A stretch of DNA of 64,000 nt, taken from Candidatus Poribacteria bacterium (GTDB lineage Bacteria > Poribacteria > WGA-4E > JAJDTR01). The position numbers were made by a program, and so were the translations under genes. The notes below the pieces were generated by a model, which saw nothing but the letters and a program-made list of their open reading frames with translations, had not been told where the DNA came from and searched no databases. Below are positions 1 to 58,482 of this stretch, one piece after another (position 1 is the stretch's first letter; the number at the start of each line of letters is the position of its first letter). The stretch spans positions 3,936,001 through 4,000,000 of the forward strand of contig CBDCTK010000002.1 in NCBI GenBank assembly GCA_965222225.1. The letters are read 5' to 3'.

Positions 1-378
1 TGCCTGTTTCACGAGAAACTGCTTTGTGAATCCATCTTTTGTTTTTTTTGACCCGATAAAATGCCACATCTCATCAAATTCCAATTCACGGGTGTTGATT
101 GGAATCTCAGGCTCCGACAACAGGGCTGCTTCCTTTGCAAGCCATTTTTGAACAGTACTTGGCGATACATTAAACAAGTTGGCAATAGTGCCATAAGATG
201 CTTTTGCAAGGGAGTAAAGAATTACTGCAAAAGCACGCTTGATGGTGGTTTGAGGGTTGGTTCTCTCGTCTCCCTCAACGAAATTATAACCGCACGTTTT
301 ACAACGGTATCGCTGTTTGGAACGAACGAATCCGTTTTTCGTGACTTCCGAACTATGACAGTTCTTACAGTTTGACAT
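1..378 (-). CDS. IS1-family transposase (InsA/InsB, programmed -1 frameshift), runs off the window start
   Basis: Manual translation MSNCKNCHSSEVTKNGFVRSKQRYRCKTCG (Zn ribbon)...ELEFDEMWHFIGSKK. A8C slippery site at 41-49; the -1 frame continues KNKRWIHKAVSRETG. Confidence 0.85.
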   Translation of the reverse strand, partial: MSNCKNCHSSEVTKNGFVRSKQRYRCKTCGYNFVEGDERTNPQTTIKRAFAVILYSLAKASYGTIANLFNVSPSTVQKWLAKEAALLSEPEIPINTRELEFDEMWHFIGSKKTKDGFTKQFLVKQA

Positions 379-448: not shown

Positions 449-572
449 CTCAGATGTCTTATAGCGACTCCAATAGAGAACCCTTCATTGTGAGTCTTCT
501 GTAGGAGCGAGTTTTACTCGCGACTGGGAGATTAATTCTACAGGATTCCAATCCGTTTCATCTGCGTAATCC

Positions 573-750
573 GATCAACTGAGCGATCAAGCGACTGGAT
601 AAGGATCAAACGAGTGGATAGCGAGTGATCAACTGACTGGATAAGGAAGGCGATAGTGAATCCTGATAGCTAATCCCGCGCGATAGAGTTCCTATAGCGA
701 TGCGATAGCTAATCCCATAGTGAGTGCGATAGAAATCCCATAGAGATCTC
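573..750 (+). repeat. Nested cluster of GATCAA...GCGATAG...TCC hairpin mini-elements
   Basis: Openers GATCAA at 573, 585, 604 and 627, followed by six closers. Confidence 0.9.
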
Positions 751-3670: not shown

Positions 3671-5575
3671 TTAAAACGCATTCGCCACAAACACCAAATC
3701 AAACACATTGACAACCCCATCCCCATTCACGTCTCCCTTCAAACTATCCGTTCCAAACCCCTGAGCCACCAGCGTCAAGTCCAAGATATTCACCACCCCG
3801 CCCCCGTTCACATCCGCCGGATTCTTCGGCTTTACCCGCAAATACATCTCCCCGTCAAGGTTCGGTAGTGCGTGCTCCGTGTTTACCAAACCGCTGGCGA
3901 CGCCCTGTACCTCCTCCGACAACGTGATGACCTGCGCCTACCCACTGTGATTGTAGACTGCCCAACCGTTGGTAAATTCGCGGATGTAAAGTCCTGGGAT
4001 CTCTATCGCACTCGCTATTCGCTCCCTAGATCGGTTCTCGTAGAGTTGACCTTTTTCTTCGCTGACCGGACGACCGAGGTCGGCATCCCAGAAATCGTAC
4101 CAGTAATGCTCGTGCTGAATGCCGTCGTTAAACAAGACGTAACCGTCGGAATGCGTGAGGCCGAATGCAGTGAAAGCGCGCATCCAGCGTAAATTCGCCG
4201 GGCTATCCGGCGGTCCCGTGGGAATACCCCATCCTTCCAAGCCGTTAATCTGCGGTTCTCTGAGGTTGGCTTCCAACCAGAGCAAAGCGCTCTCTATCTG
4301 GGCTAACCCCGCTTCTAGACGCTCTCCGGTTTTATCGTGCGGCACCCCCGTTTCCATAAACCCGCCGTTGATATGCTCGCCTGTCCTCGGTATTTTGCGG
4401 TCGTTGGTGTTGCCCATTATCAATGGGCCCGGACGAGCCTCGGCGCGGATGCGCTCAAGAATGTTGCTCCGAGCGCGTTGCTCGACAATCGTGGCGTCCT
4501 CATCTTCCGCCCAATGGTCAAAAAGAACGCCGTCGTACAAACCGCACCTTGACACGGCGAGCGCTCGGTTAATGATTATCTCCTAGGCGACGGGGTGTGT
4601 AAAATCGACTTTGTAAGCACCAGGCAGGGAAGATTGCGATCAGGCTTGCCGTCAGCGCCTTTTACCCAATAAGGCGAGTCCTCCGGCACGTTTTCGAGAT
4701 AATCTCTTTTCATTGGAATACTTACAATGAAAACCATATCCGGATTAATCGCTGTATACTCAGCACGCAGTTGCTCACCCCGTCCGGGAACGCCCCGTAC
4801 TTCCCACGTTTCGCCCGTGCAAAAAAAAACGCTGGTCAAATATTAGTGCCGATATATACAAATCGTGTTGAGCGTATTTCTCCACATTACTAAGATGCGG
4901 TTGATTGAGAGTCCCGGCCCATGCGGCAAACACTGAGGGATAATTTCTGCTTTTCAACCTGGATTCGAGTTCAAATGGAGGCGTATCACAGACCTGATCG
5001 TAGGTAAAACGGGTAAGCGACAGACCGTCAAGCGGAGAGCGATCCATAATAAAATTTCCCTCAATGGCGAGTTTCCGTAATCCGGTCAAACCGCGTAACG
5101 CTTCTACATCGGCTATTTGGTTGTCGCGAAGCAATAACAAGCGCAGAGAAGTTAATCCGACAAGCGGAGAAACATCTTTGATTGCGTTTCTGTCCAACCC
5201 CAACTCTTCCAAACTGTGAAGGTTGGCGAGCGGGGATATATCGGAAATGCTGTTTCTTGCCAAATCCAAGAGCCGTATATTGGGAGCATATTGCAACCCT
5301 TCAAGATTCTCAATCTCTCTACCGGGAGCGTCCAACCGCTCAAGTCGCCGCAAGGCAACGACCGTGATACGGTCGGGATTCGCTCCGCTCGCCTCGACGA
5401 CGACAGCCTTTAGATTTGGATCGGGAAAATGAACGACTTGGGCATGAACCCAAGAGGCAACCAGTAGAAAGGCAGTGACCAGTAGCCAGCGGCTAGTGGT
5501 CAGTAAAGACAAAGACGAGTTTCTGTTTTTCACTGACCACTGCTTTTTGGTGGTGGCTAAAACGCGATGTAACAT
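3671..5575 (-). pseudogene. Second LRR + GH-like + dockerin paralog, disrupted
   Basis: Same architecture as 813-3452. Frameshifts at the A9 run 4821-4829 and near 4628; in-frame TAG at 4583-4585 and 3938-3940. Confidence 0.8.
3996..4032 (-). repeat. Hairpin mini-element inserted in frame in a CDS
   Basis: GATCTA GG GA GC GAATA GC GA GT GCGATAG AGATCCC; encodes RSRERIASAIEIP, absent from the paralog. Confidence 0.9.
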
Positions 5576-8280: not shown

Positions 8281-8440
8281 GATCAACCGAGCGGATAGCG
8301 AGGGCGATAGAGATCCCTCAAGCGACTGGATAACGATCAACTGAGTGGTTAACGAAGGATCAAAGGAGCGGATAGCGACTGCGATAGCCAATCCCATAGA
8401 AGATCCCGTGCGATACAGTTCCCTTCAACCGAGTGAATAA
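8281..8440 (+). repeat. Nested hairpin mini-element cluster
   Basis: Complete copies at 8281-8317 and 8358-8395; interrupted copies at 8318 and 8335. Confidence 0.9.
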
Positions 8441-9677: not shown

Positions 9678-9845
9678 ATAGAGATCCCATAGAACTCCCT
9701 TCAACCAAGACGTAGGAGGGATCAAGCGAATGGATAATGAGTGCGATAGTAAATCCCACACGACAGAGATCCCCTCAAGCGGGTGAATAACGAGTAGGAT
9801 GAACTATCGCCTTCACTATTCGTTCAGTTGATCGATAGAAATCTT
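9678..9845. repeat. Hairpin mini-element cluster, both orientations
   Basis: Forward copy 9720-9757; reverse copy 9796-9833 inside a forward copy. Confidence 0.85.
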
Positions 9846-16451: not shown

Positions 16452-16547
16452 GATCAACTGAATGGACAGTGGAGGATCAAGCGAATGGCTAATGAGTGCA
16501 ATTGTAAATCCTGATAGAAAGTCTTGATAGAACTCCCATAGAATCCC
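16452..16547 (+). repeat. Nested mini-element cluster
   Basis: Openers at 16452 and 16475; closers similar to the 14148 cluster. Confidence 0.85.
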
Positions 16548-18837: not shown

Positions 18838-18955
18838 AGAGATTTCTATCAGGATCTGCTATCGGGATTAGCTATCGCGGTCGCTATCCGCTCCCTTGAT
18901 CTCCTTATACAGTCGCTTGATCACAGTAGATCGCTCGTTGTCCACTCGTTTGATC
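18838..18955 (-). repeat. Nested mini-element cluster (reverse) inside a TGTAGGAGC REP
   Basis: Complete copy 18864-18901 plus two interrupted copies. Confidence 0.85.
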
Positions 18956-25967: not shown

Positions 25968-26080
25968 TTCAAGCGATCCAGGGAATGGATAATGACCGCG
26001 ATAGAACTCCCATAGAAATCCCGTGCGATAGAGATCCTAGGGCGATAGTAAATCCCTACAGAGATCCCCTCAACCGAGCG
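25968..26080 (+). repeat. Nested mini-element cluster
   Basis: Complete copy 25975-26011 plus several closers. Confidence 0.85.
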
Positions 26081-26169
26081 GCACGTTTCAGGATATCCCA
26101 ATCCATAGACCCTACTTTCACCCCCGATTCAAAATAGATGAATCGGTCAACTCAAAATTAGGCACGTTA

Positions 26170-29099: not shown

Positions 29100-29337
29100 G
29101 TTCTTAGCTCGACTTTGTACATTTGTAGGGTGGGCACCGTCCACCATTTCTTGTAGGGTGCGCACTGCGCACCAGCCTTTGTGAGCCCAAGCGGGGCGGA
29201 AGGTGTGTAGAAACGGCGATTCACTACTCATCATAAGCCCCAGAGGGGCGACAGGTAGCAACAACTCAAATACCCAAGAATCGCTTTGTTACCTCTTTTT
29301 CAAACAGGGTCTTAAGAAACCTTCGTGGTGTACTATC

Positions 29338-29613: not shown

Positions 29614-29712
29614 GGGAATTCTATCGATCAACCGACTGGATAAGGAGGGATCAAGCGTATGAATAATGAGTGCGATAGAACTCCGATAGTAAATCCCGTA
29701 CGATAGAGTTCC
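29614..29712. repeat. Nested mini-element cluster after an uninterrupted REP (29542-29597)
   Basis: Copy at 29649-29684 lies within the copy starting at 29626. Confidence 0.88.
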
Positions 29713-39194: not shown

Positions 39195-39424
39195 AGAGCC
39201 TGTTTGAAAAGTACAGTAGGGTGCGCACTGCGATCAAGCGAATGAATAATGAGCGATCAACTGACTGATTAAGGAAGGCGATAGTGAATCTTGATAGAGC
39301 TCCCTGAGAAATCCCGTGCGATAGAAATCCTGACAGGTATGTAGTAGCCAACAATGAAAACATGAAAAAACTTTCAACAAATGACCAAAAATGGCTTTGC
39401 CACCGATTATTCAATCAGGCTCTA
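39195..39424. mobile_element. MITE-like element containing a nested mini-element cluster (39232-39331)
   Basis: AGAGCCTGTTTGAA...TTCAATCAGGCTCT ends; the REP GTAGGGTGCGCACTGC is interrupted by GATCAA. Confidence 0.65.
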
Positions 39425-47953: not shown

Positions 47954-48028
47954 GATCAAGCGACTGATTAAGGAGACCAAGCAAGCGAATAGCGCGCGCG
48001 ATAGAAAATCCCGCGCTATTGAGATCCT
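47954..48028 (+). repeat. Two nested mini-elements
   Basis: GATCAA GC GA CT GATTA AG GA [GACCAA...AAAATCCC] GC GCTATTG AGATCCT. Confidence 0.85.
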
Positions 48029-49077: not shown

Positions 49078-49248
49078 GATCAAGCGAGTGGTTAACGAGT
49101 GCGATAGAGATCCCTCTCCGAATCACGACCTCCTATCGCGAGCAAAACTCCCTCCTACAGAAGACGCGTAATAAAGGGATTTCTATCGATCAACCGACTG
49201 GATAAGGAGGACGATAGTAAATCCTGATCGCTATTCGCTCCCTTGATC
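49078..49248. repeat. Mini-elements inside a REP (49078-49114) and inside a reverse copy (49188-49225 within 49176-49248)
   Basis: Paralogous to locus 29542-29700, giving empty/filled comparisons. Confidence 0.9.
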
Positions 49249-55972: not shown

Positions 55973-57742
55973 ATCAAACTCCACCACAAAATCTTCCTCA
56001 CCTACACGTCGCTCTTCCTCGTCACCATCGGCGGGATATTCGCGATTGCGAGTTATTTTATACGCGCCGCGTTTGACGGGCAGATTCGCGAGGAAGCGGC
56101 AGAATTCAGAACTCGTATCTCGGAGACGCACAATTCCTTGGTTGCGGACATTGAGGAGAAGGTCGAGACTGAAAGAACCGACCCCGATGTCGTGCGCGCC
56201 ATCAGAAACCAAGAAACACGGCCGACGACGATTAGAGACACCGTGCTGGAAATTCTGGAGTACGGGGACGCCGACGGGCAAATCATCGCCAGTCGATTGG
56301 ATCTGGATCTTCGCCGGGGAGAGGTTGATTCGGAAGCGCGGGATCGCGCAGTAAACAGAGCCCCCAAATCCGCGATTCGGCTGAGAAACACGCGGCGCGG
56401 CGAAATCGGTTCCTCCGAATCGGCAATCGAGGTCACGCTGCCAATCAAGGCGGGCGAGAGAATCTTGGGTTTTGTCACGGGCGGCTATTTCTTGCGAGAT
56501 CGACTTCGTCGTGCGCTGAGCAACCAATCACGACATACGGTTTTTCTTCGGGAAGCGGACGAACTAATCCCTCTGAATCGATCGGAAGGTTCCGTTCCGG
56601 TCGAGAAAAATGAGCTGATTCAGGCTGCCGGCACGGACAAAACCGGCAGGTTCTCAAAGATCAAAATTGATAACATGCCGCACAGCGTTATTCCGGTAGC
56701 GCTGCCGACGTTGCCGTCAAGCTCACCCGTCGAATTGATTATCGCGTATTCTCACCAAAACGAAATCAGGTTGCAGCGCCAGTTGACACTGATTCTTTTT
56801 GTCGTGGCGGCGGTCGGACTGCTGTTCGCCTATATTGCCAGCTACCTGATCGGACTCCGGATGACCAAACCCATTCACGAACTCACGTCAGGCGTAAGCC
56901 GGATCGCGTCCGGGGAGCTTAACCACCAACTGGATGTCCGCACCCGAGACGAAATCGGACAGCTTATGCAAGGCGTCAACCGGATGGCGACAGATCTGAA
57001 AACCAACTTGGAGCGACGAATTAGCGCTGAACGTGTCGCCGCGTGGCAGGATGTGGCGCGCCAAATTGCCCACGAAATCAAGAACCCGCTGTTTCCTATT
57101 CGAGTCTCAATCGAAAACCTTCAGAAAGCGCGCTCGCAGCCCGAAATCTTCGATAAGATATGCGACGAATGCACCGAGACCATCATTGAAGAGGTCGACC
57201 GACTCCAGCGGATGGTGGACGAATTCCATCAATTCGCTCGGCTGCCCCTTCCCGACCGAAAGCCTTCCAATCTCAATCAAATCGCCGAACACGCACTGAA
57301 TCTGTACTCCCAATCGTTATCGCAGATTCGGATTGAGGCCGACCTTCACCCCGACCTGCCTCGCATCTCCATCGACCCGGAACAGATTGCCCAAGTTTTG
57401 CAGAATCTGATCAAGAACGCCGTTGAAGCCATGCCGGACGGAGGAAGTTTGCGTATTTCAAACCTGCCAATTGATGGGAGCGGGGTTGCGGTAGAGGTTC
57501 AGGACACGGGTATGGGAATGTCGCCGGAAACACAGAAGGAAATGTTTACCCCGTACTACACAACAAAGGAAACCGGAACCGGCTTGGGCATGGCGATTGT
57601 GCAACGAATCATTTCCGATCACGGCGGCAAAATCTCCGTGACGAGTACGGAGGGGGCTGGCACAACAGTGCGTCTTGAGTTTCCGAATCCCGCCCGATCA
57701 ACCGAACGAATAGATCAAACGACCGAATTGGCAGTGCGATAG
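55973..57742 (+). CDS. HAMP-domain sensor histidine kinase (NtrY-like); start codon appears to be ATC
   Basis: TM1 upstream of the called ORF, HAMP, ARQIAHEIKNPL, NLIKNAVEA, DTGMG and GTGLGM motifs. Confidence 0.85.
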   Translation: MKLHHKIFLTYTSLFLVTIGGIFAIASYFIRAAFDGQIREEAAEFRTRISETHNSLVADIEEKVETERTDPDVVRAIRNQETRPTTIRDTVLEILEYGDADGQIIASRLDLDLRRGEVDSEARDRAVNRAPKSAIRLRNTRRGEIGSSESAIEVTLPIKAGERILGFVTGGYFLRDRLRRALSNQSRHTVFLREADELIPLNRSEGSVPVEKNELIQAAGTDKTGRFSKIKIDNMPHSVIPVALPTLPSSSPVELIIAYSHQNEIRLQRQLTLILFVVAAVGLLFAYIASYLIGLRMTKPIHELTSGVSRIASGELNHQLDVRTRDEIGQLMQGVNRMATDLKTNLERRISAERVAAWQDVARQIAHEIKNPLFPIRVSIENLQKARSQPEIFDKICDECTETIIEEVDRLQRMVDEFHQFARLPLPDRKPSNLNQIAEHALNLYSQSLSQIRIEADLHPDLPRISIDPEQIAQVLQNLIKNAVEAMPDGGSLRISNLPIDGSGVAVEVQDTGMGMSPETQKEMFTPYYTTKETGTGLGMAIVQRIISDHGGKISVTSTEGAGTTVRLEFPNPARSTERIDQTTELAVR

Positions 57743-57819
57743 AGTTCCCATAGAGATCCCTTCAAGCGAGTGGATAACGAGCAGTCAAAGGCGCGAATAG
57801 CGACTGCGATAGAAATCCT
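57696..57819 (+). repeat. Nested mini-element cluster overlapping the kinase 3' end
   Basis: Openers at 57696 and 57713; the stop TAG lies in GCGATAG. Confidence 0.85.
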
Positions 57820-58428: not shown

Positions 58429-58482
58429 GGGATTTCTATCGCGCTCCTTGTTCAGTCGCTTGATTTGTCCGCTCGCTTGATC
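58429..58482 (-). repeat. Nested mini-elements (reverse) next to half of a REP
   Basis: Reverse complement is AATCAA GC GA CT GAACA AG GA GC GCGATAG AAATCCC. Confidence 0.85.

Follow-up and report, generated by a model that had tools for sequence, protein, structure and literature searches.

The window analysed here, a 64-kb stretch of DNA from a Candidatus Poribacteria genome, contains at positions 573-750 a compact cluster built from a short dispersed repeat (Table 1). Positions 573-716 consist of four copies of this 37/38-nt unit, each enclosed by the preceding one. Three truncated left parts (openers) of 12, 19 and 23 nt, all of which start with GATCAA on reading of the sequence, are followed by an intact 38-nt copy and then by three right parts (closers) of 13, 16 and 23 nt, whose ends read ATCC(C/T). 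An unsupervised position-weight-matrix (PWM) parser, which removes the innermost copy, rebuilds the outer one and repeats the operation, returned exactly the four levels, opening at 573, 585, 604 and 627, that a first-pass annotation of the sequence had described. The level-2 unit is interrupted after model position 23, which leaves the halves 604-626/627 and 665-677; the level-3 unit is broken after GA at model positions 19-20 (585-603 plus the shared GA, and 678-693), and the level-4 unit after GA at model positions 12-13 (573-584 plus the shared GA, and 694-716). The break points are complementary in last-in-first-out order, namely 12+23, 19+16 and 23+13. The outermost copy scores only at the threshold because its closer, 694-716, is one base short.

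Beside this cluster, window 1-378 on the minus strand is occupied by a truncated open reading frame with weak helix-turn-helix matches, all below the Pfam cut-offs (HTH_28, 22.6 bits against a cut-off of 25), which may be the beginning of an insertion-sequence protein. Adjoining clusters, at window 481-545 and 29122-29182, are GTAGGAGCGAG...CTCGCGAC and GTAGGGTGCGCACCGCCCACC hairpins of the GTAG-tagged REP type; both hairpin families are hosts of the unit at other sites in the genome.

Table 1. Repeat units, unit fragments and nests in the 64-kb window (k, junction class).
Feature	Position	Strand	Basis or remark
Truncated openers	573-584, 585-603, 604-626	+	Sequence
Level-1 innermost intact unit, 38-nt variant	627-664	+	PWM score 56; removal restores next copy
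Closers	665-677, 678-693, 694-716	+	Sequence
Level-2 unit	604-677	+	Rebuilt score 49 once 36 nt removed; junction k=24
Level-3 unit	585-693	+	Rebuilt score 53; k=21
Level-4 outermost unit	573-716	+	Rebuilt score 20; k=14
Unmatched closer, model positions 14 to end	717-739	+	No opener upstream of 573
Unmatched short closer fragment, ATAG...ATC tail	740-750	+	Sequence
Three-level nest	8316-8423	+	8358-8395 inside 8335-8407 inside 8316-8423; parser
Outer unit holding opposite inner unit 9796-9833 (-)	9773-9845	+	k=24, at G|C of GCGATAG
Two-level nest, absent from the first-pass list	16452-16525	+	Parser
Two-level nest, inner 18864-18901	18851-18922	-	Parser
Two-level nest, inner 29649-29685, then unmatched closer to 29712	29626-29697	+	Sequence, parser
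Two-level nest, inner 39255-39292, within GTAG-type REP	39232-39304	+	Sequence, parser
Two-level nest, inner 47975-48012	47954-48028	+	Parser
Outer unit holding opposite inner unit 49188-49225 (+)	49176-49248	-	k=24, parser
Simple unit; orthologue in G002 has three further nested layers	58429-58465	-	Alignment

The repeat unit folds on one strand

The unit is 37 or 38 nt long and non-coding. Its consensus, built from 828 to 1,119 copies, runs GATCAA, sC, GA, ny, GrATA, rn, GA, nn, GCGATAG and a 7- or 8-nt tail ending in ATCCC. Scanning of the 5.70-Mb genome with the PWM at a threshold of at least 20 bits identified 1,096 intact copies, and the reversed sequence yielded 0; a chance origin of the nesting at 573-750 is excluded. 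Recursive parsing of the genome brought the total to ~1,395 units, comprising 1,062 at top level and 333 that were excised. The great bulk are intergenic (925/1,059). The unit at window 3996-4032 (minus strand), by comparison, lies in frame inside a long open reading frame, 3938-4555 on the same strand, where its presence lengthens the coding sequence by exactly 33 nt compared with the corresponding region of four congeneric genomes; the copies compared at this site may be paralogues, because 813-1873 and 3681-4483 match the same region in relatives.

Model positions (6,22), (7,21), (10,18) and (11,17) covary and define a four-pair hairpin in which a constant G.A/A.G separates the two blocks of pairs and GrATA forms the loop. 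In the 792 simple units 93.7% of the paired cells are canonical, compared with 59.5% after partner shuffling, and each of the four pairs is represented by three or four pair types. In the 25 contiguous copies of the window the corresponding values are 98% and 62% (none of 500 shuffles was as high), with 37 double-change cells, whereas slid partners gave only 18-58% canonical pairs. It should be emphasized that the matrix treats columns independently and therefore cannot favour pairing. At the paired columns G.T wobbles far outnumber A.C, indicating that the GATCAA strand is the folded one. Thermodynamic folding of the unit revealed almost no stability signal (MFE -1 kcal/mol, z = 0.64), and a search of Rfam with the unit matched no family.

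Units are nested within units across the genome

The first-pass annotation had listed nine nested loci in the window, and nesting was recovered at eight of these, those at 573, 8281, 18838, 29626, 39232 and 47954 and the two in opposite orientation at 9796-9833 and 49176-49248, both of which the parser finds. At the ninth, 57696-57819, the parser detected no nesting; this stretch contains two simple copies (57713-57749 and 57783-57819) whose flanking fragments have break points that do not complement one another. The 8281 locus comprises three true levels, and the nest is abutted by an intact copy at about 8283-8319, while unmatched closers follow the nest at 39232-39304 and extend to 39331. 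At window 25975-26100 one intact unit precedes four closers that have no openers, and in two relatives this site has only a short, degenerate unit-like stretch.

Across the genome the recursive parse made 333 excisions in four rounds, of which 303 are true nests, up to four levels deep. Among the 1,062 top-level units 792, 223, 39 and 8 have 0, 1, 2 and 3 inner levels, respectively. Thus, ~22% of the units hold another unit, though units make up less than 1% of the DNA. In an excision scan each intact copy was cut out at all offsets and lengths and a new intact copy was sought across the junction. Rebuilds in the same orientation peaked at 36 nt (about 90-98) and 34 nt (60-79), with 26-37 at 35 nt, and those in opposite orientation at 36 nt (about 30), against a background of 2-19 at other lengths.

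If one unit has been inserted into another, the two halves of the outer copy should still pair. In the 132 events with a junction inside the hairpin, 302 of the 375 cells that contain split pairs (80.5%) are canonical in the rebuilt outer units. Random re-pairing within the same junction class gave 68.4% +/- 1.5%, with 0 of 1000 trials reaching the observed value, and crossing parses, in which the outer left half is joined to the inner right half or the reverse, gave 41.9% and 57.9%. Outer halves thus pair better than random combinations, and belong together. In the k=24 class, where the hairpin is not split, linkage between the type of the left half and that of the tail favoured the nested parse only modestly (nested better in 65 cases, crossed in 41, tie in 9). 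Some nested composites share longer flanks or are embedded in larger repeats, and may have spread as intact blocks, so that the nested events would not all be independent.

The genome is not, however, a pure collection of balanced stacks. Abutting the 1,062 top-level units are 295 unmatched closers and 184 unmatched openers, compared with false-positive rates at random positions of 12 and 8 per 3000, respectively; the commonest class of orphan closer, with 75 cases, starts at model position 26. The bracket structure proposed in the first-pass annotation is therefore sound at eight of the nine loci but unbalanced genome-wide, and even 573-750 carries two orphans. Head-to-tail tandem junctions (k = 3, 32, 35) account for 25-30 of the 333 excisions, 25 of them with k=3 in G000. 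The most extended example is in genome G005, where locus L134 (G005:C1:3218101-3218900) contains, at about 190-640, ~13 units (TCAA...ATCCC) arranged head to tail at a period of 35 nt. This run consists of nine near-identical units and four of a second variant, has the leading GA in its first unit only, and ends in a nested cluster. The claim that the arrays did not grow by slippage is consequently upheld for 573-750, with its complementary opener and closer lengths, but was too absolute for the family as a whole given these tandem junctions and the G005 run. Indeed, a constant head-to-tail period is lacking in the 573-750 cluster and occurs in a minority of arrays.

Insertions replace short targets at fixed positions

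The 303 nests occur at a few fixed positions of the unit. Self-junctions lie after model position 23 (k=24) in 157 cases, 20 (k=21) in 42, 17 (k=18) in 33, 13 (k=14) in 25 and 19 (k=20) in 15, with a few at 14, 21 and 10. Nearly all the junctions (291/303) overlap the 5' end of the unit by 1-3 bases (G, GA or GAT), and the net gain is 34-36 nt, the 38-nt variant adding 36 in 148 cases and the 37-nt variant 34 in 90, which corresponds to the replacement of two or three bases of the target. No target-site duplication was found at the 303 self-junctions or at REP hosts; a short target beginning with G (GC, GCG, GCA, GCAT or GA) is replaced, with the loss of 1-4 target bases. Inner units in opposite orientation number 43, and 42 of these are at the palindromic G|C that starts GCGATAG (k=24), a bond that is identical whichever strand is read.

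Units that do not lie within another unit are often found in other hairpin repeats. For 160 of the 1,062 units an empty paralogue of the site, with the same 9+9 nt of flank, was identified, the spacers that the unit replaces being GC, GCA, ACA, GT, GCAT, GA or GCG. Sites were counted in three REP host families. GTAGGGTGsGCACnGCsCACC is represented by 141 empty and 34 filled sites (unit orientation 24 forward, 0 reverse), GTAGGnGGGGCA..TTGCCCC by 20 empty and 22 filled (18 forward, 0 reverse) and GCCCC-nnn-GGGGCGACAGGT by 35-38 empty and 10 filled (8 forward, 0 reverse), giving an overall orientation of 50 forward to 0 reverse. As the genome contains about 209,000 GCG trinucleotides, the trinucleotide alone is not the target, and the context required seems to be a short hairpin or the foot of one. 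A Watson-Crick run of at least 5 bp across the unit flanks was present in 61 of the 1,062 units compared with 25 in re-paired flanks, and under this crude test hairpin hosts thus account for a minority of sites. The first-pass proposal that the element carries its own GCGA-like target is borne out in a refined form, in that a GC, GCG or GA beginning with G is replaced at a few fixed positions, and a comparable target is also used in the unrelated REP hairpins.

Nesting depth and layer age differ between species

Congeners share 83-95% identity in genes, while the spacers between these are unalignable, and the sites at which exact junctions could be compared across species are 58429, 3996 and 25975 only, most other spacers being too diverged. 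At 58429-58465 there is one unit in both G000 and G005, with flanks that are 99% identical, whereas in G002 three more layers, one of them inverted, have been inserted at the k=24 bond. Comparison of orthologous spacers, which the first-pass annotation had put forward, thus reveals a nesting depth that differs between species at this site. Orthologues of 8281-8440 have no units in six congeners, a different nested pair in two and a single inverted unit in one. These between-species differences suggest that the unit has been mobile.

Sequence divergence points in the same direction. Mismatch to the core is 4.7% for inner and 5.9% for outer copies (117 and 85 pairs, respectively; Wilcoxon p=0.01), and is 4.0%, 8.2% and 9.5% at levels 1, 2 and 3. 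This gradient fits, as expected, outer layers that are older. Serial insertion of the unit into its own earlier copies, the central claim of the first-pass annotation, is consequently supported by the pairing of split halves, the complementarity of break points, one orthologous locus and the divergence between inner and outer layers.

Short-read contigs from four public runs (X3, X13, X14 and X15) end at every cluster, and none bridges 573-750 or 8281-8440. Contig joints such as 627 to 665, in which 37 positions are skipped with one C between, have sides of just 19-24 nt, and these 37-nt skips may derive from different members of the family.

A scan of a collection containing one genome per species returned at least 101 stretches, and among the matches listed 80 out of 80 are metagenome-assembled genomes (MAGs) of Candidatus Poribacteria, to which the family, among those matches, appears to be confined. 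In 31 relatives a 30-nt pattern from the unit has 323-862 occurrences per genome within the window's own genus (ten genomes), 118-137 in a second genus and two in a third; it is absent from the 16 genomes of six other genera, and the reversed-pattern control gave 0. Identical hot spots and net lengths were observed in at least 101 loci of other Poribacteria species, which contain 87 nested events among 265 top-level units with up to 3 inner levels.

Orientation follows GC skew and Y1 genes are linked indirectly

The orientation of the unit tracks GC skew (Spearman -0.53, p=1.5e-4, 46 bins of 100 kb) and not transcription: the correlation with gene strand is negligible (rho 0.05), and in tandem spacers 346 units have the same orientation as the neighbouring genes and 278 the opposite. 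The forward strand of the unit is mostly on the C-rich strand. On the 5.6-Mb contig C2 the cumulative GC skew switches sign several times and unit orientation flips along with it; either a heavily rearranged chromosome or inversions in the assembly would produce these switches.

The genome contains five matches to Y1 (PF01797), the best of which is a 157-residue protein of the IS200 type; its score exceeds the cut-off of the NCBIfam IS200 model (65.8 bits against 55) but not that of the RAYT model (30.6 bits against 80). In genus g1 an inward-facing unit lies within 200 nt on 13 of the 28 sides of 14 Y1 genes, compared with a baseline of 4.4% for all genes. These Y1 genes, however, have inverted REPs of the GCCCC type on their flanks, an arrangement classical for REP transposases, and the nearby units have been inserted into the REPs at GGG|GCG|ACAG. 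The enrichment arises because units have invaded the REPs that flank Y1 genes, and the link is therefore indirect; gene neighbourhood does not identify Y1 as the cognate enzyme of the unit. Y1 genes are also present in genera in which the unit was not found. At L159 (G000:C2:3080001-3081100) and L144-L152, which span three genera, IS200-type Y1 genes lie between inverted GCCCC-nnn-GGGGCGACAGGT hairpin repeats, and these repeats are invaded by the 37-nt unit in some species; the Y1 genes include a 157-residue open reading frame at G000:C2:3080255-3080728.

Discussion

The data presented here are best explained, in our view, by a stack of a 37/38-nt non-coding repeat that probably grew by repeated integration into resident copies through a replication-linked process acting on single strands. 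A new unit would replace a 2-4-nt target beginning with G, without duplication, and would add 34-36 nt net. Favourable targets would lie in or beside short hairpins, which is to say GTAG-type and GCCCC-type REPs and about seven fixed places in the unit, the main self-target being the G|C with which its GCGATAG motif opens. Because every unit would bring new targets for further integration, arrays in the form of Russian dolls, with the younger units inside, would result. The lack of duplication, the strict orientation in hosts, the strand-specific structure and the bias with replication strand together point to a single-strand, replication-linked process, and we infer that this is transposition-like and operates on single-stranded DNA at the replication fork. 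A net gain of 34, 35 or 36 nt and the loss of 1-4 target bases are untidy for a classical HUH transposase.

It could be argued that runs of openers and closers were generated not by insertion but by local duplication, through replication slippage or unequal recombination of unit halves. The k=24 hot spot gives openers of 23-24 nt and many closers of 11-13 nt, the program TRF reports separate periodic runs, unmatched halves are frequent, and both the ~13 head-to-tail units of G005, with a 35-nt period and many identical members, and the 25 tandem-type k=3 junctions of G000 are in keeping with such a process. We nevertheless regard it as very improbable as the origin of the clusters, since differing break points complement each other in last-in-first-out order (12+23, 19+16, 23+13), 80.5% of the split-pair cells are canonical compared with 42-58% in the crossing parse, and 43 inner units are in opposite orientation. 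In addition, the unit resides inside unrelated REP hairpins that have empty paralogues, and G002 contains extra inner layers within a shared outer unit.

A second view, and one that we judge distinctly unlikely, invokes templated repair rather than a dedicated transposase: a structure-specific nuclease would cut a hairpin, bases would be lost, and a unit would be copied in through 1-3 nt of microhomology. This would accommodate the replacement, rather than duplication, of target bases (lost spacers GC, GCA, GCAT and GCG), the overlap of 291/303 junctions with the 5' G, GA or GAT of the unit, the variable net length, the excess of truncated closers over openers and the association of targets with hairpins. 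Repair of this kind, however, would be expected to use filler sampled from many sequences and not from one family of ~1,400 copies, and it sits poorly with copies that are nearly always complete and constant at both ends, with an orientation of 50:0 in REP hosts and with the few, fixed sites within the unit. The least probable of the explanations considered is spread through RNA, in which a structured small RNA of the GATCAA strand would be reverse-transcribed into nicks to leave 5'-truncated copies. The retention of structure on one strand with many G.U-type pairs, and the larger number of orphan closers, which are 3' parts, than of orphan openers (295 against 184), are consistent with an RNA intermediate, whereas orientation follows GC skew and not the neighbouring genes (346 same, 278 opposite; rho 0.05) and Rfam provided no match.

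Returning to replication-linked integration, the enzyme responsible may be a Y1 (HUH) transposase of the IS200/RAYT type, although this is a tentative guess. In the GCCCC-type REP as in the unit a hairpin is followed by GCGAYAG, and the site of invasion is common to the two, which leads to a speculative reading in which one Y1 enzyme serves both. We consider doubtful, but worth stating, the proposition that the unit is the smallest known cargo of HUH/Y1-type single-strand integration, in which a weak hairpin plus GCGAYAG marks both element and target and the enzyme of the GCCCC-type REPs pastes in ~36 nt. If this were true, the Y1 enzyme of these REPs would cut at the foot of the hairpin and paste a ~36-nt piece into G|C on either strand, which would account for the k=24 hot spot, the insertions at GGG|GCG|ACAG and the Russian-doll growth; the order of transposition events in an uncultured symbiont could then be read from the nested arrays.

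The family described here provides an unusually large and clean data set on how repeats only a few dozen bases long move, with ~1,400 copies per genome in at least ten congeneric species and a second genus, and it offers fixed target positions, strict orientation rules and layers ordered in time, making both in vitro and population-genomic tests feasible. The stacks are also of practical relevance to the annotation of Poribacteria and other sponge symbionts, as they break short-read assemblies and may sit in frame inside genes.

Comparison with known systems

A literature search found no published account of repeats in Poribacteria. The unit has features in common with several classes of small mobile DNA. 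Elements of the IS200/IS605 family, such as IS608 and ISDra2, carry two subterminal hairpins that differ from each other and integrate cleanly on the 3' side of a target of 4-5 nt. Similar to these elements, the unit causes no target duplication, uses a short specific target, is structured on one strand and has an orientation tied to the direction of replication. In contrast, it possesses one hairpin, overlaps its target by 1-3 nt and loses 1-4 target bases, and its preferred strand is apparently opposite to the active strand predicted by the IS608 model. A canonical IS200/IS605 derivative was accordingly rejected on the grounds of the single hairpin, the target loss and a net gain that varies from 34 to 36 nt. 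A MITE was likewise discounted, as there are no terminal inverted repeats (the ends share only GATC) and no target-site duplication, and target bases are replaced.

REPs are typically stable imperfect palindromes of about 20-40 nt. REPs and REPINs are associated with RAYT (Y1) transposases and include GTAG- and CGTC-tagged types, according to the available excerpts of Di Nocera et al. (2013; PMC3733652) and Bertels and Rainey (2011; PMC3116915). The unit resembles REPs in being a short, abundant and mostly intergenic hairpin repeat that is occasionally in frame inside genes, in a genome that contains Y1 genes, and its hairpin followed by GCGATAG parallels the hairpin followed by GCGACAG of the GCCCC-type REP that flanks Y1 genes. 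Its consensus, however, has neither a GTAG nor a CGTC tag at either end, on which basis identity with these REPs was dismissed; its stem covaries but is short, with only four Watson-Crick pairs and a tandem G.A, and is thermodynamically weak, and the Y1 genes are flanked by another REP and not by the unit itself. Moreover, self-nesting is not among the REP properties described in those excerpts of PMC3733652 and PMC3116915. Insertion sequences that target REP hairpins (see Tobes and Pareja, 2006), such as IS1397 and ISKpn1, which enter BIME palindromic units, are also mentioned in the excerpts of PMC3733652. As with these, hairpin repeats are preferred integration targets of the unit, but IS1397 and ISKpn1 are full insertion sequences with their own transposase, whereas the invader here is ~36 nt and non-coding.

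The closest parallel is provided by very small repeats of cyanobacteria, and the unit, in its sponge-symbiont genome, appears to belong to a type of very small mobile DNA that is rare but has been described before. The small dispersed repeats SDR1-8 of Nostoc punctiforme and its relatives, reportedly described by Elhai et al. in 2008, are said to be 21-27 nt long and non-coding, to show compensatory changes that support a secondary structure, and to be nested in one another and in other repeats. We know of no enzyme that has been named for the cyanobacterial SDRs. In the available excerpts of Elhai (2015; PMC4390886), the insertion of SDR5 is reported to be precise, falling after the third base of GCGATCGC and before the fourth. 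The Poribacteria units are, like SDRs, very small and dispersed, with a covarying structure, and are nested both mutually and in other repeats, here three REP families. They also enter precisely at a short G/C-rich motif, which is GCG|AT... for the SDR and the G|C of GCGATAG, or GCG/GCA, for the unit. In contrast, the unit is 37/38 nt rather than 21-27 nt long, its hosts are Candidatus Poribacteria and not cyanobacteria, and the genome in which it resides is poor in GCGATCGC (240 copies). On account of this scarcity of GCGATCGC, and because the matches listed are without exception from Candidatus Poribacteria, a cyanobacterial origin, which the GCGAT-type motifs had at first suggested, was rejected. 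SDR1-8, which are likened to the unit here by their description, probably differ from it in sequence. The evidence thus gives good support to the view that the unit represents a new family of the known but poorly understood class of very small self-nesting repeats.
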